47,329 nucleotides of DNA from a virus (Duplodnaviria; Caudoviricetes). The translations under genes were made by a program, and so were the position numbers. Position 1 is the first letter of the stretch, and every line of letters begins with the position of its first letter. This document shows positions 1,992-38,609 of this stretch, one piece after another. The stretch spans positions 1 through 47,329 of the IMG/VR virus record IMGVR_UViG_3300031938_000007. One strand, given 5' to 3'. The notes under the pieces are model-generated. The model was not told the DNA's origin and made no database searches. It saw only the letters and a list, made by a program, of their open reading frames with translations.

Positions 1992-2354
1992 ATGAGTGTT
2001 GCCGCAGTGGTGGACCTGGAGGCTGACCAGGGCGCCGACTTCGGGTTCCAGCTCTACTGGCTCGACCCCACCATGACGCCGTACCAGCTGCTCGAACCCA
2101 TGCGGATGGAGGTTCGCCGCCTGGACGACCTGCAGCTGGTCACCGCGGTATCCAGCGGCGCCGGGATCACCTTCAACCCCGCCGGGGGACTGATCCAGGT
2201 GCTCATCCCGGCCAGTACCACCGACACCATCAAGGCCGACACCTACGTGTACGACCTGTTCGTCAGCTACCAGGAGAACCCCACCTCCACCCGTCGGCGG
2301 CGGTTGATCCGCGGCCGGTTCATCCTCAACCAGAAGGTCACTCAGACGCTATGA
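1992..2354 (+). CDS. Virion structural protein, BppU-N / Ig-like domain
   Basis: RBS AGGAGG; DLEADQGADF...MEVR...YVYDL...RLIRG.F pattern of beta-rich tail-associated domains. Confidence 0.55.
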   Translation: MSVAAVVDLEADQGADFGFQLYWLDPTMTPYQLLEPMRMEVRRLDDLQLVTAVSSGAGITFNPAGGLIQVLIPASTTDTIKADTYVYDLFVSYQENPTSTRRRRLIRGRFILNQKVTQTL

Positions 2355-3055
2355 GCAACCAGGTCATCCGTCTGATCACCGGGGACACCATCGAGGTGCG
2401 CACCGGGGCGATCCAGGGCATCGGCCCCGAGGGACCTCAGGGCGAGGTTGGCCCGATGGGCCCGCAGGGTGCCCAGGGCGACACCGGCGCCACCGGAGCC
2501 ACCGGCCCGATGGGCCTGGTCGGCGACTACGGCACCATCTTGACCCTGGGTGGGGCGATCAGCGTGGCGGACAACACCCCGACCAAGCTGAAGTTCCTGT
2601 CCACCGTGCTGGACCACATCAGCGGGGCGATCGACAACAGCGGCGCCTCGACCAAGCTGCTGCTGCCCGCGGGCAACTACTTCGTGTCCGGCTGGGCTGC
2701 CTGGGCCCAGCCCTCGGGCACCGCGGTGGGCTACCGGGAGATCGACCTGCAGTACAACACCACCAGCGTGGCCGGAAGCTGCCAGGCACCGGTGGCCAAG
2801 ACGATGAAGGTCGGCGGGGCCACGGTGCTGGTCTCGGTGGGCACCAGCGCCTGGCTCGATGTCACGGTGACCCACACCCAGGGCAGCGCGCTGTCGTTGG
2901 CCGACGCCCGACTGGCCGTGTGTGCCGTGGGACCGGGCCCAGTTGGCCCTGTGGGGCCCGCAGGACCGGCTGGCCCAGAGGGACCGGCCAGCACCGTTCC
3001 CGGGCCCGCAGGAACGCTCTCAGCGACCACCACCTTCGCGGATCTGGGTGGCTGA
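2351..3055 (+). CDS. Collagen-like (Gly-X-Y) minor tail/fibre protein
   Basis: Gly-X-Y repeats (GPEGPQGEVGPMGPQGAQGDTG; GPVGPVGPAGPAGPEGPA) flanking a beta-rich domain. Confidence 0.8.
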   Translation: MSNQVIRLITGDTIEVRTGAIQGIGPEGPQGEVGPMGPQGAQGDTGATGATGPMGLVGDYGTILTLGGAISVADNTPTKLKFLSTVLDHISGAIDNSGASTKLLLPAGNYFVSGWAAWAQPSGTAVGYREIDLQYNTTSVAGSCQAPVAKTMKVGGATVLVSVGTSAWLDVTVTHTQGSALSLADARLAVCAVGPGPVGPVGPAGPAGPEGPASTVPGPAGTLSATTTFADLGG

Positions 3056-3411
3056 TGCTGGACCGTCAACTGCGTCTGAGCCAGCGCGCCCCCGCCCAGG
3101 TCTCGGCGCTGCCGCTGGACTACGTGCTGTCCCGTGGCGGCATCCCGGTGGACTGCACCGGGGAGCTGAGCGCGGTCTACACCGGGGGACTGACTCTGGT
3201 GCGCGGCATCTTCACCCTGATCGGCTCGGCACCCAGCGGCGACTGGACCCTGAGCCACACCCTGAGCGCCATCGGTCATGGGGTGTGGATCCAGACCGGC
3301 AGCGCCACCGGGCTCAGCCCGGCCCTGTTCGTGGCCGGGATGACCACCACCTTGTCGACCCTGCCCGGTGCCAGCACCGGGGACCTGATCACCATCCAAG
3401 GAGTGCTCTAG
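3055..3411 (+). CDS. Putative minor tail protein
   Basis: ATG overlapping upstream TGA; G/T/S-rich beta-strand-like sequence; lies within a run of structural-like genes. Confidence 0.55.
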   Translation: MLDRQLRLSQRAPAQVSALPLDYVLSRGGIPVDCTGELSAVYTGGLTLVRGIFTLIGSAPSGDWTLSHTLSAIGHGVWIQTGSATGLSPALFVAGMTTTLSTLPGASTGDLITIQGVL

Positions 3412-3749
3412 TGGCCATCTTGAACACCCCGATCCAGAAGCTGCCCTACCCGGACGAGAACAGCCTGATCAACTCGGTGGATGAGTACATCCGCAACCTG
3501 GCCAAGGCGCTGGAGACCAAGCTGGTGATGGTCTTCGTCTCGGCCAGCGACCGGGACACCACGCTGCCCGCGGGCTCACGCACCGAGGGGATGATGGCCT
3601 GGCTGCAGGACACCAACAAACTGCACCTGTTCGACGGCACGGACTGGAAGCAGATCTACCCGCCCAGCCCGAACATCACCACCGGCACCACGCTGCCCTC
3701 GATCTCCACCGGCGCGGTGGGTGACATCTACATCCAGTACGGCGTCTGA
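3411..3749 (+). CDS. Putative minor tail protein
   Basis: GTG overlapping TAG; TP...LPYP, F.S...RD...EGM.AW..DT..L..FDG..W and G..GDIYIQY motifs typical of actinophage tail-fibre modules. Confidence 0.7.
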   Translation: MAILNTPIQKLPYPDENSLINSVDEYIRNLAKALETKLVMVFVSASDRDTTLPAGSRTEGMMAWLQDTNKLHLFDGTDWKQIYPPSPNITTGTTLPSISTGAVGDIYIQYGV

Positions 3750-4744
3750 TGTCCACCGGCCAGCTGTGGACCCTGGTGGCCACCCCCACCGACGTGGGGA
3801 CCTCGATCCGGTGGCGCAACGACACCGCGATCAGCGTGCAGTCCGGCTCCGGGCAGCGACCGGTGGCCAAGATCTACCAGCGTGCCGCGGCCAGCTGGAC
3901 GCTGCTGTACGAGCGGGATGTCACGCCCCCGGCCATGCCGTTGTCGCTGACCGCCACGCTGAGCGGCTCCACGCTGACCATGACCGCCAAGGCCCCGGCC
4001 GATGCCGACATGGCCTCGATCGCCTTCCGCTGGTCCACCACCGGCTACCCGACCTCGCCGACCTCTGGGGGCGGTGGCAGCGTGGCAGCCGGGCCCTCGG
4101 CCACGGTCAGCGCCAGCTATGCCAACCAGACCAGCGGCACGGTGCTGTACTGGGCGGTCTTTGCCATCGACACCAGCGGCAACTACTCCACCCCTCGGCT
4201 GCTGAAGTACACCGTGCCGACCATCGCCTCGGCCCCCACCACGGTGACCAAGAGCGCCTACGTCTACGCCACCGACTCGGCCTCGTGGAACGACGTGAGC
4301 GGCTACTGGCGCACCGACAACGACTACGTCTACCAGGGCGGGGACGCCTACCACGGGCTGTGGTTCTACTCCACCCGGATCAGCGCCCTGCTGGCCAAGG
4401 CCAAGACCATCGAGGCCTTCTCGATCACCATCACCCGGGCCAACACTGTGCATGGCGTCCCCGGGGGTGCCAACGTCTACCTGACCGCCCACACCGCCAC
4501 CGCCCAGCCCAGCGGCAGCCCGCAGGCCAACGACTCCAACGGGGCCTACGTGGGCACCCTGACCCGCGGGCAGACCGACACCTTTGCCGTCCCCAGTGGC
4601 TACTGGGCCAGCTTCCTGGGCGGCACCTACAAGGGCTTCGGGCTGTATGCCGGGACCACCTCCTATACCGATCCCAAGTACTTGTACGCCCTGGGCGGCG
4701 CCAACGCCGTCAGCGGCCGGGTGTACCTGAAATGGACCGAGTAA
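3749..4744 (+). CDS. Putative minor tail protein (Fn3-like plus C-terminal beta domain)
   Basis: DVTPP...YW.VFA.D.SGN.S Fn3-like pattern; YQGG...GLWFY C-terminal pattern; S/T/G rich. Confidence 0.7.
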   Translation: MSTGQLWTLVATPTDVGTSIRWRNDTAISVQSGSGQRPVAKIYQRAAASWTLLYERDVTPPAMPLSLTATLSGSTLTMTAKAPADADMASIAFRWSTTGYPTSPTSGGGGSVAAGPSATVSASYANQTSGTVLYWAVFAIDTSGNYSTPRLLKYTVPTIASAPTTVTKSAYVYATDSASWNDVSGYWRTDNDYVYQGGDAYHGLWFYSTRISALLAKAKTIEAFSITITRANTVHGVPGGANVYLTAHTATAQPSGSPQANDSNGAYVGTLTRGQTDTFAVPSGYWASFLGGTYKGFGLYAGTTSYTDPKYLYALGGANAVSGRVYLKWTE

Positions 4745-4763
4745 GAGAGAGGAGGGCTAACCC

Positions 4764-4859
4764 ATGCGCCAAGTTCCGGGCTTTGTCTGGTTCATCGTCG
4801 TGGTCATCTTGATCCTGCTGCTGTTCCTGCTGGTGGGACACCCGATCAAGATCGGCTGA
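4764..4859 (+). CDS. Small single-pass membrane peptide (31 aa, MRQVPGFVWFIVVVILILLLFLLVGHPIKIG), below the ORF-track cutoff
   Basis: Strong RBS GAGAGGAGGG upstream, ATG 4764, TGA 4857-4859, one hydrophobic helix. Confidence 0.6.
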   Translation: MRQVPGFVWFIVVVILILLLFLLVGHPIKIG

Positions 4860-4868
4860 CAGGGTGGA

Positions 4869-4874
4869 TAGACT
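4869..4874 (+). promoter_or_regulatory. Candidate -10 hexamer (TAGACT) for leaderless terL transcript
   Basis: TANNNT exactly 6 nt before ATG 4881; no clear SD at normal spacing. Confidence 0.5.
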
Positions 4875-4880
4875 GTAAAC

Positions 4881-7127
4881 ATGACGGTCACGTTCCCCAG
4901 CTCCTATCAGCTGACCCGGCCGCCCAGGAATGACGACGAGCTCTACTCCTTGGTCCAGGCGCTGTGGAACGTGACCATCCCCCGCGGCAAGCACTGCCCG
5001 CACCACCAGGCGCCGTTCGACGCCTTCGCCACGGCCTTCTTCGCCCGTGAGCCCCAGGTGCTGGTGCGTGGCAGTCGAGGCCTGTCCGGCAAGACCCAGA
5101 TGATGAGTTGCCTGGGGCTGACCCAGGCGGTGGTGCTCGGGGCGGACAACAACATCGTGGGTGGCTCGGAGATGCAGGCCATCAACGCCCTGGAGCACAT
5201 GAAGAAGATGTGGTCCTTCCACAGCGCGCCCAAGTACATGATCCGCAAGGACCAGACCACCCGGATCGAGCTGCACAACGACGCGGTGATCCGCCCGCTG
5301 ACCGCCTCCGAGCGCAGCGTGCGTGGCCCGCACCCGCAGCGGCTGCTGCTGGATGAGATCGACGAGATGGACGAGAACATCCTGGAGTCCGCCAAGGGCC
5401 AGCCGATGCCCCAGGACAACTGGCTCGGGGTGCGCATCCCCCAGCAGACCACCATGGTGTCCACGCTGCAGTACGCCGACGGCACCATGATGAAGGAGAT
5501 GGCCCGGTTCGAGGACGAGGGCCTGCCGGTCATGGAGTGGTCCCTGGCCGAGGGCACCCAGGTGACCACCCAGGCCGGGATCAAGAACATCGAGGACGTG
5601 CTGCTCACCGACAAGATGCTCACCCGAGGGGGGTGGAAGCCTGTCCAGCACGTCAGCCGGATGGGCTACAAAACCACCATTAGCATCCAGCTGAGCAACG
5701 GCAAGACGTTGCGACTTACTCCCGAGCACAAGGTGGCGACCCCCTCAGGATGGGCCCGCGCCGACAGCCTTGAGCCGAGCTCGCCAGTTCTTGGTCTGCT
5801 CTCGGACGCACGTACGGCAGTGCCTGCGGTTGTCACTGGGGGCCACGTAGGTATTTTCCGGGGTGTACTCATGGTTCCGGGGGCAGTGCGTGCGTGCCAG
5901 CTGTGCGGCGATGTGGGGTGCGCGGAGCATGTTCGTCCGATGGCTCGTGTCCTCCAGGTGGCTGGGGTTGACACAAGCGTGGACTCGACACAGGTGGTCG
6001 ATCTCCCCATCGATGGGGCCGATGAAACAGGCGTAGGACAGCCGATGGGCCTTGGCATGCCCCCAGGTCTTGCGGTTGACGATCCCGTAGCCGTCCTTGT
6101 CTCTAGCTCCGATCCACAGCCAACAGCCGTTCATGTCGATCGAGATGGACTGCCGTACCCGAGCTTGACCACGCATACGGTTCTCGGTATCAGTCATGGT
6201 GCTACCGTACCGGTCTGGGACATTGGGGTGGAAGAAGACCACGAGTTCGTGGCCGAGGGCGTGGTGGTCCACAACTGCTACCTGGACACCATGTACGCCA
6301 AGGACGGCTGGCTGTCCGAGGAGTTCGTCACCCAGAAGAAGCGCGAGGTCTCCCGGGAGCGCTGGCGGGTGGAGTACGAGCTGGGCGAGCCCTCCATCGG
6401 CAACCGTGCCTTCGACTCCTCCTCGGTCGAGCAGGTCTTCTCCCTGCCCTGCCCCGAGCCGATCAAGTCCAGCCGGGAGTGGGAGGAGTACAAGACCGCC
6501 GACCCCAAGGACGACCGGGACTACGTCATCGCCGCGGACTGGGCCCAGGCCGTGGACAAGACGGTCATCAGTGTCTGGGATGTGACCTACGAGCCCATCG
6601 AGATGGTCTACTTCGTGTCCTTCAACCGGCTGCCCTACCCCAAGATGATCGGCAAGTTCAACGACCTGCAGAAGCGCTACCGGGCCCAGGGCATCCACGA
6701 CGCCACCGGGCTGGGCCGGGTGGTCTCCGACCTGATCGACGGCCGGGTGCGCGACTTCGTGATGGCCGGGCGCGAGCGAGACGACATGCTGTCCGAGTAC
6801 GTCACCGGGGTGGAGAACGGCAAGATCGTCGCCCCGCGGATCGGCAGCATGTACCGCGACCACCTGTACGCCTCGGTGGAGGACCTGTACTCCCGGGGCA
6901 AGGACTACCACCTGCCCGACAGCGTGTGCAGCGCGGCACTGGCCTGGAAGCTGGTCAGCCACAAGTTCCCGGTGGTCTCCCCGGTGGGCCTGCCACGCAC
7001 CGACACCACCTGGATGGCCCGCCAGATCGAGCAGGGCACCGAGCACCTGCATGGCTCCTCGCACTGGCGTCCCGAGGGCGACGTGCGCTCCACCGAGACG
7101 GAGGACCTGAGTTGGCAGTTGAGCTGA
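4881..7127 (+). CDS. terL: Terminase large subunit, interrupted by an intein
   Basis: Walker A-like RGSRGLSGKT, Walker B LLLDEID, motif III VSTL, nuclease VIAADWA...D, DATGLG, C-terminal PDSVCSAALA. Confidence 0.92.
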   Translation: MTVTFPSSYQLTRPPRNDDELYSLVQALWNVTIPRGKHCPHHQAPFDAFATAFFAREPQVLVRGSRGLSGKTQMMSCLGLTQAVVLGADNNIVGGSEMQAINALEHMKKMWSFHSAPKYMIRKDQTTRIELHNDAVIRPLTASERSVRGPHPQRLLLDEIDEMDENILESAKGQPMPQDNWLGVRIPQQTTMVSTLQYADGTMMKEMARFEDEGLPVMEWSLAEGTQVTTQAGIKNIEDVLLTDKMLTRGGWKPVQHVSRMGYKTTISIQLSNGKTLRLTPEHKVATPSGWARADSLEPSSPVLGLLSDARTAVPAVVTGGHVGIFRGVLMVPGAVRACQLCGDVGCAEHVRPMARVLQVAGVDTSVDSTQVVDLPIDGADETGVGQPMGLGMPPGLAVDDPVAVLVSSSDPQPTAVHVDRDGLPYPSLTTHTVLGISHGATVPVWDIGVEEDHEFVAEGVVVHNCYLDTMYAKDGWLSEEFVTQKKREVSRERWRVEYELGEPSIGNRAFDSSSVEQVFSLPCPEPIKSSREWEEYKTADPKDDRDYVIAADWAQAVDKTVISVWDVTYEPIEMVYFVSFNRLPYPKMIGKFNDLQKRYRAQGIHDATGLGRVVSDLIDGRVRDFVMAGRERDDMLSEYVTGVENGKIVAPRIGSMYRDHLYASVEDLYSRGKDYHLPDSVCSAALAWKLVSHKFPVVSPVGLPRTDTTWMARQIEQGTEHLHGSSHWRPEGDVRSTETEDLSWQLS
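5745..6197 (-). CDS. HNH homing endonuclease (150 aa) encoded antisense inside the terL intein
   Basis: GCWLWIGA..KDGYG...AHRLSY..FIGPI..EIDHLCRVHACVNPSHLE...NMLR, plus THCPRNHEYTPENTY...RHCRTC zinc-binding tail; ATG 6197 (alternative 6176), TGA 5747-5745. Confidence 0.88.
   Translation of the reverse strand: MTDTENRMRGQARVRQSISIDMNGCWLWIGARDKDGYGIVNRKTWGHAKAHRLSYACFIGPIDGEIDHLCRVHACVNPSHLEDTSHRTNMLRAPHIAAQLARTHCPRNHEYTPENTYVAPSDNRRHCRTCVREQTKNWRARLKAVGAGPS
6204..6209 (-). promoter_or_regulatory. Candidate -10 hexamer (TACGGT) for leaderless antisense HNH transcript
   Basis: Minus strand reads ggTACGGT-agcacc-ATG, the same TANNNT + 6 nt + ATG geometry as at terL and at 7379. Confidence 0.5.
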
Positions 7128-7336
7128 GCCAGACCCAACACGACCTGCTCACCGAGCTGCGTCACCAGCACTGGGCCGAGTCCAAGGCCCGGGCCGAGGT
7201 GGACCGGTTGACCCTGGCCGCCAAGGAGGCCGGGATCAGCGCCGGGGTGCTGTCCCAGGTGCTGGGGATCAAGCCCAGCGCGGTGAACAGCCGGATCTAC
7301 CAGCTGCGCCAGCAGACCCCCTCGCTGTTCGAGTGA
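7112..7336 (+). CDS. Small HTH DNA-binding protein (start approximate)
   Basis: AKEAGISAGVLSQVLGIKPSAVNSRIYQL HTH-like pattern; TTG at 7112 with GGAGGA upstream. Confidence 0.6.
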   Translation: MAVELSQTQHDLLTELRHQHWAESKARAEVDRLTLAAKEAGISAGVLSQVLGIKPSAVNSRIYQLRQQTPSLFE

Positions 7337-7344
7337 GACCAGGT

Positions 7345-7358
7345 TGTTAACGTTAACA
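7345..7358. promoter_or_regulatory. Perfect 14-bp AT-rich palindrome TGTTAACGTTAACA, candidate operator
   Basis: Perfect inverted repeat in an intergenic gap, 8 nt upstream of the TAGGGT -10 candidate (7367-7372) and the ATG at 7379. Confidence 0.6.
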
Positions 7359-7378
7359 GTAAGGACTAGGGTCGAGGT

Positions 7379-7609
7379 ATGAGCAGGACCACCGTGTTGG
7401 GGATGCGGGCCAAGCCGGAGCAGGCCGCCTGGATCACCGACAAGGCCAAGTCGCTGGACGTGACCGTCACCGAGCTGATGCGCCTGATGCTGGCCTACGC
7501 CGCGATGCACATGTCGGAGCAGGACTACCAGGAGACGAAGTGGACAACTCTCAACCGTGGAATGACCCCCAGTTCCTCACCAGCGACGCGGTCTACCAAG
7601 ACGTCGTGA
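7379..7609 (+). CDS. Putative ribbon-helix-helix DNA-binding protein
   Basis: Alternating strand TTVLGMR then helices PEQAAWITDKAKSL / TVTELMRLML, a CopG/Arc-like pattern. Confidence 0.55.
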   Translation: MSRTTVLGMRAKPEQAAWITDKAKSLDVTVTELMRLMLAYAAMHMSEQDYQETKWTTLNRGMTPSSSPATRSTKTS

Positions 7610-11562: not shown

Positions 11563-11850
11563 ATGAGCCACGAGCCGCACCTGACCCTGGCGGGCAACTC
11601 CTGCGAGGTGCACAAGTACCACTGGCCGCGCCCACTGCGCACCGTCAAGCACCACATCTGGCCCCAGGAGTACGGCGGCCCCACGGTGCCCACCAACCTG
11701 GTGCTGGTCTGCGACACCGGCCACTACAACATCCACGCCGTGCTCGACGCCCTGCTCAAGGGCACCACCCCACCCAAGACCCACAAGGCCGAGCAGTCCC
11801 TGGCGCTGGCCGGGTACGCGGCGATCAAGAAGGCGGCCCCCCATGCCTAA
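11563..11850 (+). CDS. Small HNH-type nuclease
   Basis: C..H...HHIWPQEYGG...TNLVLVCDTGHYNIH. Confidence 0.75.
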   Translation: MSHEPHLTLAGNSCEVHKYHWPRPLRTVKHHIWPQEYGGPTVPTNLVLVCDTGHYNIHAVLDALLKGTTPPKTHKAEQSLALAGYAAIKKAAPHA

Positions 11851-32410: not shown

Positions 32411-32772
32411 GGAGCGACTCCAGCTTTTCCCTGGAGATGTCTTACTGCTACGAGCGGGGCATCTCCCACAGTGACTTCCTGTCCTGGGCGCCCCAAGACC
32501 GTGCCAAGACACTGGCCTTCGCCCTGGAGCAGGCGGCCCGGTGCCAGTTGTGCGGAACAGCAGAATGGGAGTGGACGGAGAACCGATTCGCCTATGAGGC
32601 CGAGGAGCAGTACTGCCGAGGGTGCTACCTGAAAGCGGTGGCTTCCGAGGGAAGTAACAACCTCCCCGGCACCACAGTCGAGTTGATCCCCGTTACTGAG
32701 CTCACCCGAGCACAGAAGAAGGTGAACCAAGCCCGGCTAGCGATGATGGACCTGGGCGACGAGGAGGGCTAG
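32395..32772 (+). CDS. Tail assembly chaperone frameshift extension (GT C-terminal part)
   Basis: -1 frame: EMSYC...GISHS.FL.W...DR.K.LA.......C..CGT...EW...Y.....C.GC; no independent RBS seen. Confidence 0.75.
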   Translation, partial: YRERLRSDSSFSLEMSYCYERGISHSDFLSWAPQDRAKTLAFALEQAARCQLCGTAEWEWTENRFAYEAEEQYCRGCYLKAVASEGSNNLPGTTVELIPVTELTRAQKKVNQARLAMMDLGDEEG

Positions 32773-35700
32773 TGCCTGGCGCAGACCAGACTGCCAATGT
32801 CGTCCTGACTGCTGACAACCGGCAGTACAACCGCTCGATGGACGAGTCGGCCAAGTCGACTGCCTCGCTGACCACCTCGGTGCTCGCGCTGTCCTCGGCG
32901 ATGAACACGCTGGCCCAGCGGACCGGCAAGAAGCTGCAGATCGTCTCCGCCGCCGGGATCGCCGGTCTGGCGGCCGCTACGGCCTCGGCGGCCAAGTTCG
33001 ACCAGCAGATGTCGACCATGCAGGCCAACGCCGTGCTGACCGGCCGCAAGGTCGACGACATGGCCAAGAACGTCAACGCCCTGCGTGGCTCGTTCGCGGT
33101 CACCACCGACCAGGCCATCGCGCTGCAGACCCAGCTGTCCAAGCTTGGTCAGGTCCGCGGCATCGACCAGATCAGCGCCTCGATGCTCAAGCTCTCCGCG
33201 GTCACCGGGGAGTCGCTGTCCGGGCTCACCGCGGGCATGATCGGCCTGCAGCGCCAGATGGGGACCCTGGGCGGGCAGTACACCGAGAAGTTCTCCTCCG
33301 CGCTCGCCAAGGTCAGTGCCAGCGCCGGTGTCAGCGCCCAGTCGGTGCTGGACTTCTCCAACGCCATCGCACCGGTGGCCAAGGTCGCGGGGATCTCCCA
33401 AAAAGAAGTGATGGGCTTCTCGACCGCCTTCGTGAAGGCCGGTCAGGACGGTGGCGCGGCCGCCACGGCGTTCAACAAGATGCTCACCGACATCACTCGG
33501 AGCATCCAGTACGGCTCCCCGGAGCTGAAGGCCTACTCCAACCTCATCGGGGTCAGCGTCTCGCAGTTCAAGCAGATGCCGCGCTCCGAGGCCGTCATCA
33601 AGATCTTCGACGCGATCAACAAGCAGGGCCCGGACGCGATCAAGACCCTGGAGCGCTTCGGTCTGGACGGCATCCGGACCTACAAGGCCCTGCAGGGCAT
33701 GGCCTCCCAGGGTGGGATCCAGTCCGCCATGGCCGACGTGGCCAAGGGGTACGAGAACACCAAGCCGTTCAACGACGCCGCCAAGACGGCGATGGACGGG
33801 CTCAACGACGAGCTGCAGAAGCTCGGCAACAACCTGTCCATGGTGGGCCAGGCCTTCGGCAAGGCCTTCGTCGGCCCCACCAAGGCCGTGGTCTCGGCGA
33901 TCAACTCGGTGGTCAAGCCGATCGCCGCGCTGCTGCAGTCGATGGGGTCGATCCCCGGCGTGGCAGCCCTGGCCGGGACCGCCATGGTCGGGGTGGCGGG
34001 CACCATCGTGCGCAGCCTGGGCCTGATGACTGGCATGGCTGCCTTCCGCCAGCTGCAGGGCGGCACCTTCAACGCCGGTCGCCGGATCGCTCGTGGCGAC
34101 GACCGTGGCTGGGCCAGCCGGGCCGCGGACAGCTACACCAGCGGCGAGGGCGGCATGTTCCAGCGCCGCCTGTTCGAGATCGGCATGTCCGCCGGGGCCG
34201 CCCAGAACCGGTTCCACGACTGGCGCAGCGCCCGGCGCAGCGGCGGCTCGGGCCAGGGCGGTCCCAACCCGCTGTCCCGGCTGGGTGCCCTGGGCGTGCA
34301 CGGTCTGGGCGCCTTCACCCGGATGCAGATGGAGCCCGTCTACTGGGGCAACGTCCGCAACCCGATGAACCGCAGCGCCACCTTCGAGTCCAAGACCTTC
34401 GGGGACTTCTTCGCCGCCCAGAAGAAGACCATCAGCGACAGCTTCTCCGGGATCAAGGACGCCCTGAGCGGCAAGAACAACGCCGCCACCGCGGCGGCCG
34501 CCAAGAACGCCGCCAACGGGCTGAACAACGTCGGGCGGGAGAGCGCCCGGCAGGCCGGGTTCTTCAAGACCCTGGGCAAGGAGACCCTGTCGCTGAGCGT
34601 GGCGATGGGCAAGGCCGCGGCAGGCTCCATGCTGATGGTCGGCGGCGGTGCGGCCCGAGGCCTGGCCAAGGCAGCCCCGGGCATAGCAGGCCTGGCCGGG
34701 ACCGCCCTGAAGGGCATCGGCGGGGCTGCGATGGGCTTCCTGGGCGGTCCGGTGGGCTTGGCCCTGACCGCTGGGGCTATTGGCTTCTCGGCCTACCAGA
34801 GCCACAAGGACAACATGTCCAAGGACCTGGCCGCGGCTGATGACGCCGATGCCACCCAGGCCGCCGGTGGGGCCTACCGGGTGGCCCTGGGCGAGGCAGC
34901 GCGGGCCACCACGACCTTCGCCGACATCGTCAAGCGCAACGCCTCGGACATGAGCCCCAAGGAGAAGCCTGGGGTTGTCTCCGACGCGATGGCCAAGGAG
35001 GCCGCCAAGCCCGGCCACGCCTACACCGACCCGCGCATCGGAAAGATGACCGAGGCGGAGGCCACCACCTACGCCAAGAGCGCCAGCCTGTCCGACCAGG
35101 GCAAGATCCTGCTCGGCTATGACCTGACCAAGCGGTTCGGCCAGAAGACCGCCCAGCAGATCCTCAACGCCCAGTCCTCGATGAGCGGGGCGCTGGACAC
35201 CCGGGACCTGTTCAACAACACCCTGGGTGACCGCAGCGGGTTCGGCCCCTGGCGGCACTCCTCGGACGATGCCCGCAACGCCTCCAAGCTGGCGGCCGCC
35301 ACCGGCCAGGCCAACCTGGCCGACATCAACTCCAAGTACGGCTCGGCTGCCGGGGCGCAGTACACCATCGCCACCCTCAACGGAGCCTCCCGCTCGCGGA
35401 TGAGGGGTGGCAACACCGAGCTCATCCTGTCCTCGATCGCCGCTCAGCTGGGCATCGACGCCAAGGACAAGAACGTCCAGCGGGACTTCACCAACCTGTT
35501 CGCGCCCTCGATCGACAACGGGGTGGTCAGCAACGCCACCTTCAAGACCGCGCTGGACCGGTACAAGGCCGACCCGAGGATGTACTCCTCGGCACTGGGT
35601 CAGCAGATCCAGGCGCTGGCCTCCACCGCGGGCGCCGGGGCCAACTACACCTCCTCGGTCTTCAACCCGACCACCTCGGCCACGGTGACCCGCAACCCCT

Positions 35701-38609
35701 TCGACCAGGTCGGGGACTACTCGCTCAAGCAGCTGCGGTACTCCCAGTTCGGGGCCCGGGTCTTCGGCGGCGACCAGACCCGGGTGGGCCTGGACGTCAA
35801 CGAGGCCATTGGCAACCAGGGCAACGCCAACATGCAGCAGATCGCCATGAAGGAGCTGGCCGCTTCGGCCATGGCGACCTCCAAGGGGTTCTCCGGCGCG
35901 GTCAGCTCGCTGCAGGACTTCAAGGCCGCGGTCGGCGACGTCAACGACCCGCTCTACCAGCTGGCCGCCAACGCCCAGGCCGTGGTCATGCAGCGCCAGA
36001 GCGAGGCGATGCACTACATGTCCCGCGGCGAGCAGGCGGGACAGCTGGTCGGCAACTTCAGGGCCGCCCAGCGCAACGCTGCGGCCCACCCGGACTCCCC
36101 CGAGGCCGAGACCGAGCTGGAGCAGTCCCGCCAGCAGATGGAGGGCGCCAAGGCCGGGGCGTACGACTTCTTCAAGCAGATCGTCGCCCAGCAGCGCGAG
36201 TTCGAGATCTCCACCGAGCGGGCGCAGACCGACTTCGCCATCCAGCGTGGGCGCCAGGAGTTCGAGTACAACCTGTCCCGCAAGCGGGCCCAGGAGGACT
36301 TCGACAAGCAGCGCAACCGGTCCCAGGCCTCCTTCGACCGGCAGATCGGTCGCAGCCAGCGTGACTACAACAAGCAGCGCGGCTACGCCCTGGCGGACTT
36401 CAACAAGCAGCGGGCCCGCTCCGAGGAGGACTACCAGCACCAGGTGATGCTGCTGCAGTCCCAGGCGGCCCGGCAGCTGTACGACATCTACGACCGGATC
36501 CAGGTCAAGCGCTCCTGGGACGCCAGCAACCTGTTGGTCAACGCCAACGACCAGCTCCAGCAGCTGCAGCAGCAGGCCACCAACCTGACCACGGCCAGGG
36601 GCATGGGCGTGTCCAGTGACGTGATCAAGCTGCTGGGCCTGAACGAGACCGAGAACGCCCAGCAGCTGGCCCGCTTCATCGCCGACTTGCAGAGCGACCC
36701 CGCGCTGGTCAAGGCCTACAACGACATGGCCACGGCGCGGCTCAAGGCGTCCAAGAAGATCGTCACCGACAAGGACAACGAGCAGTGGTCCGAGATGGAG
36801 CGGTCCTTCAAGCTCAACGCCGACCGCGCCCTGACGGACTTCAACCAGTCGATGGGCCGCCAGGCCGAGGCCTTCGCCACCTCGCTGAAGGACATGCGCA
36901 CGGAGAACCGGATCCAGGTCTCCCAGGCCGAGGCGGACTTCTCCCAGGCCCGGCAGCGCCAGGCCGACGACTACGCCCGCTCGGTGGCCAACATGGTCAC
37001 CGACTTCAACCGGCAGATGATCCGCGCCCGCGACGACCTGTCCCGCTCGGCCGAGGAGATCACCGGCACCTTCGACGACCTGGTCGCCAAGGCGATCGGG
37101 TCGCTGACCGGTACCGCGGCCAAGCAGGCCCAGGCGCTGTACAACCAGTTCAAGGGCACCTCCAAGCAGGTCAAGGACGAGGCCAAGACGCTGGCCACCG
37201 ACGTGGCCCACCTGTTCTCCCAGATGGGCCTGAAGATGGGCACCACCTCCGGCGGGGTGGCGATGTCCTCCGGTGGTGGCGCCAACATGGGCGGCGGGAC
37301 GACCAAGTACGCCGACGGGGGGCACGTCCAGGGCTGGTCCCCGAACAAGCGCGCCGACAACATCAACGCCCGGCTCACCGCCGGTGAGTACGTGCACAAC
37401 GTGGACGCCGTGAACTACTACGGCAAGGGCTTCATGGACGCGCTGAACAAGCGCCAGATCCCCAAGGGCGAGATGGCCTTCGCCTCCGGTGGCCTGGTGC
37501 CGTTCGGTCGCTGGCTGCAGTCCAAGGACTACAACGTCTCCGAGCACCCGCTGTTCGGTGGGGTCCACCCGGTGCACGCCAAGAACTCCTGGCACTACAA
37601 GGCTGGCGCGATCGACGTCAACCACGACCAGAGCGACGAGAAGAACGCGATCAATAAGGTCATCAACGTCGCTCGCCAGTACGGCCTGCGGGTGATCTGG
37701 CAGGTCGCCGACCACTTCAACCACGCCCACTTCGACATCGGTGGCGGTCCGGACATGATCGGCCCCGGGGTTCCCCGCGGGGTGCGCAACTCCTCGGGTC
37801 AGTACAACCTGCTGGACCAGATCGCCAAGCTCAACGGTGTCCGCAAGTGGGAGAAGACCCGGGCCGCCGAGCGGCTGTTGGCCCAGACCATCCCGGCGGG
37901 CTTCCTGGCCAAGGTGATCTCCGAGAACGCCGACTTCGGCGGCAGCGGTGACCTGTCCATGCCCACGCCCAGCCGAGGCACTCCGGCGCGCAACGCGATG
38001 CTGGGCCGGGGGATGGCGGCCGCCCGCGGCTGGACCGGCCCCAACTGGGACGCGCTGAACTGGATCTACATGCACGAGTCCGGCTGGAACCAGTACGCCA
38101 AGAACCCCAGCAGCGACGCCTACGGCATTCCGCAGGCGCTGCCCGGCTCCAAGATGGCCAGCGCCGGAGCGGACTGGCGGACCAACGCGGCCACCCAGAT
38201 CAAGTGGGGCCTGGGCTACATCGCCGAGCGCTACGGCACCCCGACCAAGGCCCAGCAGTTCTGGAAGGCGCACAACTGGTACGGCGACGGCGGTCTGTTC
38301 AGCGGTGGCGCGCAGAAGGTTACCGGGTTGGGCGAGCGTGGTCCGGAGATGGTGCTGCCACTGAACCAGCGCGGCGTGGACTACCTGCTGGCGGTGATGA
38401 AGCAGTACTCCGCTGCCGATGCCCGCCGGGCCGTGGGCGCGGCACGCGGGGTGCCTGCCGCGGCGTCCACCTACATCACCAACTCGCACGTGGACCGGTC
38501 CACCAAGATCAGCGGTCCGATCACCGTGCAGGCGCAGGACCCCAACGAGATGCTGCGCAAGCTTGAGGCCAAGAAGCGCCTGGATGCCCTGACGGGAGCA
38601 CGTCGATGA
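32772..38609 (+). CDS. Tape measure protein with C-terminal cell-wall hydrolase domains
   Basis: 1945 aa, Ala/Gly helical, 11-residue-like D(F/Y) periodic region; HAKNSWHY..GAIDV...DHFNHAH (M15-like Zn peptidase) and HESGWN..AKNPSS.AYGIPQALPG (lytic transglycosylase). Confidence 0.92.
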   Translation: MPGADQTANVVLTADNRQYNRSMDESAKSTASLTTSVLALSSAMNTLAQRTGKKLQIVSAAGIAGLAAATASAAKFDQQMSTMQANAVLTGRKVDDMAKNVNALRGSFAVTTDQAIALQTQLSKLGQVRGIDQISASMLKLSAVTGESLSGLTAGMIGLQRQMGTLGGQYTEKFSSALAKVSASAGVSAQSVLDFSNAIAPVAKVAGISQKEVMGFSTAFVKAGQDGGAAATAFNKMLTDITRSIQYGSPELKAYSNLIGVSVSQFKQMPRSEAVIKIFDAINKQGPDAIKTLERFGLDGIRTYKALQGMASQGGIQSAMADVAKGYENTKPFNDAAKTAMDGLNDELQKLGNNLSMVGQAFGKAFVGPTKAVVSAINSVVKPIAALLQSMGSIPGVAALAGTAMVGVAGTIVRSLGLMTGMAAFRQLQGGTFNAGRRIARGDDRGWASRAADSYTSGEGGMFQRRLFEIGMSAGAAQNRFHDWRSARRSGGSGQGGPNPLSRLGALGVHGLGAFTRMQMEPVYWGNVRNPMNRSATFESKTFGDFFAAQKKTISDSFSGIKDALSGKNNAATAAAAKNAANGLNNVGRESARQAGFFKTLGKETLSLSVAMGKAAAGSMLMVGGGAARGLAKAAPGIAGLAGTALKGIGGAAMGFLGGPVGLALTAGAIGFSAYQSHKDNMSKDLAAADDADATQAAGGAYRVALGEAARATTTFADIVKRNASDMSPKEKPGVVSDAMAKEAAKPGHAYTDPRIGKMTEAEATTYAKSASLSDQGKILLGYDLTKRFGQKTAQQILNAQSSMSGALDTRDLFNNTLGDRSGFGPWRHSSDDARNASKLAAATGQANLADINSKYGSAAGAQYTIATLNGASRSRMRGGNTELILSSIAAQLGIDAKDKNVQRDFTNLFAPSIDNGVVSNATFKTALDRYKADPRMYSSALGQQIQALASTAGAGANYTSSVFNPTTSATVTRNPFDQVGDYSLKQLRYSQFGARVFGGDQTRVGLDVNEAIGNQGNANMQQIAMKELAASAMATSKGFSGAVSSLQDFKAAVGDVNDPLYQLAANAQAVVMQRQSEAMHYMSRGEQAGQLVGNFRAAQRNAAAHPDSPEAETELEQSRQQMEGAKAGAYDFFKQIVAQQREFEISTERAQTDFAIQRGRQEFEYNLSRKRAQEDFDKQRNRSQASFDRQIGRSQRDYNKQRGYALADFNKQRARSEEDYQHQVMLLQSQAARQLYDIYDRIQVKRSWDASNLLVNANDQLQQLQQQATNLTTARGMGVSSDVIKLLGLNETENAQQLARFIADLQSDPALVKAYNDMATARLKASKKIVTDKDNEQWSEMERSFKLNADRALTDFNQSMGRQAEAFATSLKDMRTENRIQVSQAEADFSQARQRQADDYARSVANMVTDFNRQMIRARDDLSRSAEEITGTFDDLVAKAIGSLTGTAAKQAQALYNQFKGTSKQVKDEAKTLATDVAHLFSQMGLKMGTTSGGVAMSSGGGANMGGGTTKYADGGHVQGWSPNKRADNINARLTAGEYVHNVDAVNYYGKGFMDALNKRQIPKGEMAFASGGLVPFGRWLQSKDYNVSEHPLFGGVHPVHAKNSWHYKAGAIDVNHDQSDEKNAINKVINVARQYGLRVIWQVADHFNHAHFDIGGGPDMIGPGVPRGVRNSSGQYNLLDQIAKLNGVRKWEKTRAAERLLAQTIPAGFLAKVISENADFGGSGDLSMPTPSRGTPARNAMLGRGMAAARGWTGPNWDALNWIYMHESGWNQYAKNPSSDAYGIPQALPGSKMASAGADWRTNAATQIKWGLGYIAERYGTPTKAQQFWKAHNWYGDGGLFSGGAQKVTGLGERGPEMVLPLNQRGVDYLLAVMKQYSAADARRAVGAARGVPAAASTYITNSHVDRSTKISGPITVQAQDPNEMLRKLEAKKRLDALTGARR

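Follow-up and report, generated by a model that had tools for sequence, protein, structure and literature searches.

A phage terL intein with an HNH endonuclease gene on its opposite strand

We analysed a linear virus record of 47,329 bases with a G+C content of 66.6% (IMG/VR record IMGVR_UViG_3300031938_000007, itself a fragment; the whole stretch is called the window below), in which an intein interrupts the terminase gene terL (4881-7127, + strand, precursor of 748 amino acids). We consider it highly probable that this is a class 1 intein whose opposite strand encodes an intact HNH nuclease, likely served by its own leaderless promoter and likely to drive homing of the element into intein-free terL. 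The element is real and under selection on the HNH strand, it is probably mobile, and the family to which it belongs accounts for most of the related terL inteins examined.

The intein occupies positions 5541..6275 of the + strand, a stop-free frame of 245 amino acids with Ser1, T60-x-x-H63, D227 and H244-N245, followed by Cys+1. The preliminary description, made from the sequence alone, had claimed an intein of this size with intact splicing blocks, and both coordinates and motifs were as claimed. The segment matches Pfam Intein_splicing (PF14890) above the cut-off (E 7e-10), and the residue at position 1, the block B Thr-x-x-His, the terminal His-Asn and the +1 residue are those of a class 1 intein. 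The Hint domain comprises approximately residues 1-86 and 206-245. In the AlphaFold model, residues 1-80 and 221-245 have pLDDT confidence scores above 90, and residues 91-205 stay below 50 and are predicted to be disordered. Foldseek matched this model to the Mtu RecA intein (E 8e-8, TM-score 0.83 by target length). Searches of Pfam and PHROGs with the + frame of the intein middle (5748-6224) returned nothing, in agreement with the earlier claim that no nuclease lies in this frame between the blocks. The in-frame homing endonuclease that a canonical full-length intein carries there is missing. The codons are also unlike those of the rest of terL, as had been noted: the G+C content at third codon positions (GC3) of the + frame is 0.95-0.96 in the exteins and goes down to 0.59 in the overlap with the HNH gene.

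Two other classifications were tried and rejected. At the positions that we take to be B12, F4 and G5, the terL intein has V65, D227 and V243, which do not make it a class 3 intein. The mark of class 3 inteins is a Trp-Cys-Thr triplet, and in mycobacteriophages no gene hosts inteins more often than terL (PMC5050341). A group I or group II intron with a nuclease ORF (open reading frame) was also dismissed, as Rfam gave no matches at E<=1 in 4500-7500, the host frame is open and protein-splicing motifs are present. We found no other intein in the window record. The intein had no match by tblastn against 50,697 annotated phage records, and the initial scan using the intein alone returned no matches either.

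The extein upstream of the insert (4881..5540, residues 1-220) is the ATPase domain of terL (phrog_9 terL, E 7e-9). The part from Cys+1 onward (6276..7127) is assigned to the nuclease domain by its position and a weak phrog_2 profile match (E 4e-4). The intein-free homologue P0004 is 89% identical to residues 1-220 and its alignment picks up again at CYLD; therefore the insert sits exactly at VMEW|CYLD, as proposed in the preliminary description. Two empty alleles, L001 and L003, are identical to the window at 69 and 71 of the 72 nucleotides flanking the intein. The insert is thus exact, in frame and absent from all three of these alleles, as expected of a class 1 intein. Three runs that are not flagged as possible sources of the record yielded contigs covering the 5′ junction (X3, 4986-5658, 0 differences to the window), the HNH core (X4, 5931-6090, 0 differences) and the HNH start together with the 3′ junction (X5, 6111-6548, 1 difference). 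Because they match both junctions and part of the HNH gene, the element is not an assembly artefact. A DNA joint skipping the intein was not seen in four DNA runs, which are fragmentary.

The HNH gene lies at 5745..6197 of the - strand, in exact antisense codon register, and encodes 150 amino acids with a C-terminal zinc finger. That 6197-5745 is a full HNH gene had been claimed before, and the search with profile hidden Markov models bears it out: HNH_3 (PF13392) is its sole Pfam match, above the cut-off (E 1.3e-6), and PHROGs gave phrog_826 HNH (E 6e-44). The gene starts on His219 of the intein (CAT) and stops on Ser69 (TCA), so both gene ends overlap the folded splicing domain. Its own frame has a GC3 of 0.77, and its structure model reaches a pLDDT of 89. 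The sequence displays a putative His-Me finger, with catalytic His, metal-binding Asn/His and beta-beta-alpha elements (D67-H68, N77 and N89). The predicted catalytic and zinc residues are intact and are invariant or nearly so in 11 aligned copies. The protein is 40-47% identical to annotated HNH genes of Mycobacterium, Gordonia, Clavibacter and Streptomyces phages, and 78 of the 80 loci nearest to it are not inside an intein, i.e. the family is mostly free-standing. No other HNH gene of the same type was found in the window record. A 95-amino-acid ORF following the portal gene (11563-11850, + strand) resembles by eye a small HNH-type protein (His-His-Ile-Trp-Pro...Asn-Leu-Val-Leu-Val-Cys...His); it has no PHROG match at E<=0.001.

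Substitutions indicate that selection in the overlap follows the HNH (-) frame. Across the aligned copies, identity in the overlap is 34.5% in the HNH frame versus 25.6% in the + frame, and the third codon position of the HNH gene is the least conserved. In the close pair L055/L061, the changes in the overlap are 8 synonymous and 9 non-synonymous when read in the HNH frame, and 4 and 13 when read in the + frame. Beyond the overlap, in the C-terminal splicing region and the extein, the same pair differs in the + frame by 24 synonymous and only 2 non-synonymous changes.

The double open frame itself is less demanding than it seems. The HNH and intein frames are in exact register, with the central base of every codon in common, and an HNH codon can stop the intein frame only if it is TTA, CTA or TCA. 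These make up 14 of the 7,798 codons in 15 coding stretches of the window. When the same stretches were cut into 119 non-overlapping segments of 150 codons, the in-register antisense frame was open in 95, and the other two antisense frames in 2 and 0, respectively. This count supersedes an earlier estimate (73% of 809 overlapping segments), for which the automatic gene set probably included shadow ORFs. For the HNH gene of the window, the probability of having none of the three codons among its 14 Leu/Ser codons is about 0.38. The double open frame of this copy is thus hardly beyond chance, and the importance that the preliminary description attached to both strands having stayed free of stops is not borne out.

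Of 36 free-standing HNH relatives with GC3 of at least 0.68, 20 have the in-register antisense frame free of stops across the core even without being in an intein; at lower GC3 the figure is 6 of 42. At the level of the family a constraint does show: in 12 intein HNHs none of the 244 Leu/Ser codons is TTA, CTA or TCA, where 24 would be expected from the free-standing relatives; for the two copies with lower GC3, the probability of finding no + strand stops is about 0.001-0.002 each. Codon usage renders the layout easy to reach, and selection then maintains it. An open frame of 1,906 codons (32769-38489, - strand) runs opposite the tape-measure gene of the window in the same antisense register. 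It is most likely a shadow of codon usage and illustrates how little it costs to keep this register open.

A TANNNT box lies 6 nucleotides before the ATG of the HNH gene (6204..6209, - strand), on Thr222-Val223 of the intein and with its first T at -12. TANNNT about 12 bp upstream of the start is a mark of leaderless genes, which are common in Actinobacteria (Zheng et al., PMC3160421). From the motif and its enrichment, the box is likely a leaderless promoter. A second box with the same layout, 6 nucleotides before the ATG of terL (4869..4874, + strand), is likewise a probable leaderless promoter. Both strands of the window contain 55 TANNNT in total, of which 7 stand 6-7 nucleotides before an ATG or GTG versus 3.3 expected, and the seven include the terL and HNH starts. 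Among 13 DNA-confirmed elements of the family described below, TANNNT stands 6-7 nucleotides before the HNH start in 10 (9 of 12 lineages after merging of a close pair), with differing middle bases. The same region of control inteins has it in 1 of 75 cases and free-standing HNH genes in 8 of 78. At terL starts within the group it is not general (8/66). The HNH signals are carried by codons that are rare on the + strand, namely CAT at the start (8 of 125 His codons), GTA at Val223 in the box (5 of 503 Val) and TCA at the stop (11 of 564 Ser). A sigma-70 consensus scan, which requires a -35 match, did not report the HNH box, and the terminator match in the same scan was at chance level. Two small genes after terL (7379-7609 and 7853 onward, both + strand) carry TANNNT 6-7 nucleotides ahead of the ATG, too, giving a cluster of starts of the leaderless type around terL.

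The window element has many relatives. The protein and locus sets were retrieved by likeness to the window's terL and intein. Among 103 inteins delimited in the fetched DNA (duplicates included), 18 contain an antisense HNH, all 18 in the same register. After merging of duplicates and addition of two partial loci and L290, 13 distinct DNA-confirmed elements were obtained, and Pfam HNH_3 exceeded its cut-off in 7 of the 8 tested besides the window's own. For relatives known as protein only, we built a shadow profile solely from free-standing HNH genes translated in the antisense direction. It matched 33 of the 41 inteins in 135 related proteins (window's included), 31 of them at E<=5e-10 and two weakly, and nothing outside the inteins of these proteins. 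The intein of P0049 was not delimited and is excluded from the 41. Five of the eight inteins missed by the profile are mini-inteins of 133-163 amino acids, and mini-inteins occur at the window's terL site as well. Weak or partial HNH shadows were seen in P0061 and P0132. Inteins with an antisense HNH occupy five sites in the terL family of the window; P0124, a different terL, and L161, a head-maturation-protease-like protein, each provide one more site. No antisense HNH of the window type was present at 80 bacterial and archaeal genome loci (22 of 64 parts scanned).

Several loci of these sets show other arrangements. The terL gene of L040 contains two inteins (2140-2784 and 3382-4122), and each of these has an antisense HNH of its own, whose frame extends through nearly the whole N-terminal splicing region and stops on TCA of intein residue 4 or 6. 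A second, large class consists of inteins whose middle conceals an ORF in the +2 frame of the same strand, encoding an HNH motif together with zinc fingers rich in Cys (L088, L091-L093, L099, L100, L104, L108, L114, L118, L122-L125, L127-L129, L133-L135, L139, L157, L170, L180, L191 and L228). Pfam HNH_3 was confirmed in both cases tested (L091:2192-2902, E 2e-13; L124:2246-2890, E 1e-14). The four types named in the available text of a 2025 survey (bioRxiv 10.1101/2025.01.02.630785) do not include an out-of-frame HNH. Two further inteins have a nuclease in the same-strand +1 frame, LAGLIDADG_2 in L188:1264-2064 (+) (E 1e-19) and a DUF559/VSR-like nuclease in L195:1066-2052 (+) (E 8e-13).

Regarding mobility, the distribution of inteins is incongruent with the extein tree (FastTree and identity pairs). 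The eight nearest relatives of the window extein (77-83% identity) are all empty, and the sister of the window intein (81% in the splicing parts) occupies an extein just 69% alike. The five inteins starting with Ser instead of Cys (P0002, P0003, P0059, P0063 and P0067; the Ser codon corresponds to window 5541-5543) form one clade with support of 0.89, and this clade spans exteins just 47-69% identical to that of the window. The extein of P0012, which has an intein, is 100% identical to the empty P0035. That of P0003 is 98% identical to the empty P0042 and 97% identical to P0011, whose intein at this site is a different one; P0054 and P0060, identical in their exteins, likewise differ in their inteins. 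Near-identical exteins that are empty or differently occupied are what homing would predict. In a comparison aimed at a co-conversion tract, identity to L003, which is empty, rises to a peak of 95-97% immediately upstream of the site, but an empty/empty control gave 83-90% and further stretches attain 97%. As to whether the HNH entered inteins once or repeatedly, the trees require 4-5 label changes, but the approximately unbiased (AU) test, in which 10 intein rows were set against the first 40 of the 77 free-standing ones and two partial rows were left out, does not reject a single clade (p 0.79). The preliminary description had regarded the element as a composite of a splicing domain and an antisense HNH gene, which agrees with the mostly free-standing HNH family, the mini-inteins at the same site, selection on the - frame and the patchy occurrence of the intein.

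That a nuclease gene can home from within the shelter of a self-splicing element is textbook knowledge. The window element would work as follows. The observed frame and motifs suggest that terL is translated as the 748-aa precursor, from which the Hint domain is predicted to excise all 245 residues. The middle 115 residues of the intein would be an unstructured shadow of the antisense gene. Within the DNA that encodes the C-terminal splicing region, the TANNNT box would start a leaderless antisense HNH mRNA. In a mixed infection, the nuclease, with its catalytic residues identified by alignment, may nick or cut terL close to VMEW|CYLD where the allele is empty; repair with the intein-bearing allele as template would then transfer the element to the cut one. 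As for the origin, a free-standing phage HNH gene presumably entered a mini-intein backwards and in register; codon usage at high GC3 probably keeps no other reversed register open in most cases.

Several observations weigh against this interpretation. Comparison of the HNH model with solved folds gave I-PpoI (Z 6.3, root-mean-square deviation 4.0, 97 aligned residues) and I-HmuI (Z 6.0, 3.0, 76 aligned) as the best two scores, which are suggestive but under the safe level of the tool. Foldseek with this model found nothing at E<=0.001 (best E at least 0.11), and the sequence match to I-PpoI in the PDB is weak (E 0.077). In favour of the HNH assignment, however, this weak alignment places HNH H68, C70, C75, H80 and N89 opposite I-PpoI H98, C100, C105, H110 and N119, numbers counted from the alignment. 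The roles of these I-PpoI residues, apart from the known H98 mutants, are our assumption. The zero count of + strand stops in intein HNHs is partly built in because the search demanded an open intein frame. Since the sets were chosen by likeness to the window, 33 of 41 is no frequency for phages generally. Three of the 13 elements (L085, L087 and L290) have no box and show by eye purine-rich, Shine-Dalgarno-like stretches instead. The Fisher p-values for box enrichment (4e-9 and 6e-6) overstate independence, as the elements share ancestry. Finally, the mini-intein P0045, which has no HNH, also has a 100% identical empty extein twin (P0071); therefore presence/absence pairs can arise without a nuclease in cis.

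This last pair, together with the ease of keeping both strands open at this G+C and the signs of decay in the family (the two weak or partial shadows and the five mini-inteins), would also fit an element in which the HNH gene is a recent relic, dead or idle, and the intein a long mini-intein spread by ordinary recombination or by a nuclease in trans. We consider this unlikely: the catalytic and zinc residues are intact in the window and nearly unchanged across the copies, the start, stop and box of the HNH gene rest on rare synonymous codons, and the substitutions in the overlap track the HNH frame.

Even less probable is that the nuclease is expressed for the benefit of the phage, as a packaging nickase working with the terminase or as a weapon against competitors, with the intein as a mere shelter. 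HNH genes do often adjoin terminase genes and cos sites (PMC3592412), and most of the family is free-standing, but the nearest terL alleles have no HNH, and the presence of the same type at five terL sites and in a head-maturation-protease-like host fits a mobile element better than a packaging partner. The HNH and terL boxes face each other about 1.3 kb apart, so one could also imagine an antisense transcript that is mainly regulatory, heading straight into terL and lowering the output of terminase, homing being a secondary effect. This seems to us the most improbable of all, as selection in the overlap tracks the protein sequence of the HNH and the spacing of the box is that of leaderless protein-coding mRNAs (PMC3160421).

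Taking the element as an intein that homes by its antisense HNH, we tentatively suggest a wider picture, for which our confidence is clearly lower. The normal intein of these uncultured phages might be a two-strand element with its own transcription unit, in which rare synonymous codons of the splicing domain serve as promoter, start and stop of the HNH gene. The nuclease would thereby be uncoupled from terminase translation and follow its own schedule. Such elements might have reached two other host genes besides five sites in terL, and as high GC3 eases the layout, many phage inteins considered 'decayed' would be active. Inteins annotated with a degenerate middle need six-frame checks in any case, given that 33 of the 41 related inteins examined conceal an HNH.

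The window also encodes portal, major head, tape-measure, RuvC-like and WhiB-like proteins, and the WhiB-like gene together with the G+C content suggests an actinobacterial host. Upstream of terL (2351-4744, + strand) there are tail-fibre-like or collagen-like genes with Gly-X-Y repeats (2351-3055), away from the main tail module.

The preliminary description did not know the arrangement as an intein class, but antisense versions are already in print. Inteins with an antisense LAGLIDADG or an antisense VSR-like nuclease have been described in actinobacteriophages by Gosselin, Arsenault and Gogarten (bioRxiv 10.1101/2025.01.02.630785), with the same model, in which a free-standing nuclease invades an intein. 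According to this survey, some of these inteins still home and such inteins are being overlooked; 63 of 784 inteins were non-canonical, and terL is among the hosts of these. The authors cite Gorbalenya 1998 for the first antisense case, the LAGLIDADG of which is assigned to a +2 ORF in the preprint on a cyanobacterial DnaX intein (Phillips, DeSimone and Gogarten, bioRxiv 10.64898/2026.09.14.751524). The window element shares with the antisense inteins of the survey the intact splicing domain, the nuclease ORF on the opposite strand inside the intein, the terL host, the patchy distribution and the invasion model. It differs in the nuclease, which is neither LAGLIDADG nor VSR-like but solely HNH_3 with a zinc finger; in the available text of the survey, HNH appears only in frame. 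Moreover, non-canonical inteins are rare there, whereas antisense-HNH inteins dominate the related terL set of our analysis. That text names no promoter and no codon-register rule, and the leaderless box offers a concrete answer to its open question of how an antisense intein nuclease could be expressed. The register, combined with the rare use of TTA, CTA and TCA in GC-rich phages, explains how the overlap can arise. We found no report of an antisense HNH intein in the literature, subscription journals and the supplementary table of the 784 inteins excepted.

Other known systems share parts of the layout. The DnaX intein likewise has a disordered in-frame middle and a nuclease in another frame that is under purifying selection, and empty, mini and full alleles coexist; it differs in having a LAGLIDADG in a +2 ORF, putative Shine-Dalgarno motifs and a bacterial host gene, with no HNH in the main text (bioRxiv 10.64898/2026.09.14.751524). 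The ShiLan domain of a phage methylase (Arsenault et al. 2025, PMC11855218) resembles the window element in its hidden out-of-frame HNH, zinc fingers, open host ORF and proposed leaderless initiation. It has no splicing domain, unlike the window element with its Hint domain. Free-standing actinophage HNHs (phrog_826) have the same domain in ordinary genes that are not in inteins, and the solved relatives I-PpoI and I-HmuI are ordinary or intron-encoded; the His-Me finger residues of I-PpoI align with those of the window HNH. The window element works like the published antisense-nuclease inteins, yet falls outside their described types. It is the HNH version of a published layout and no new class of mechanism, to which this analysis adds the antisense-HNH family, the candidate promoter box, the pairs of empty and occupied exteins and the cheapness of the open register.

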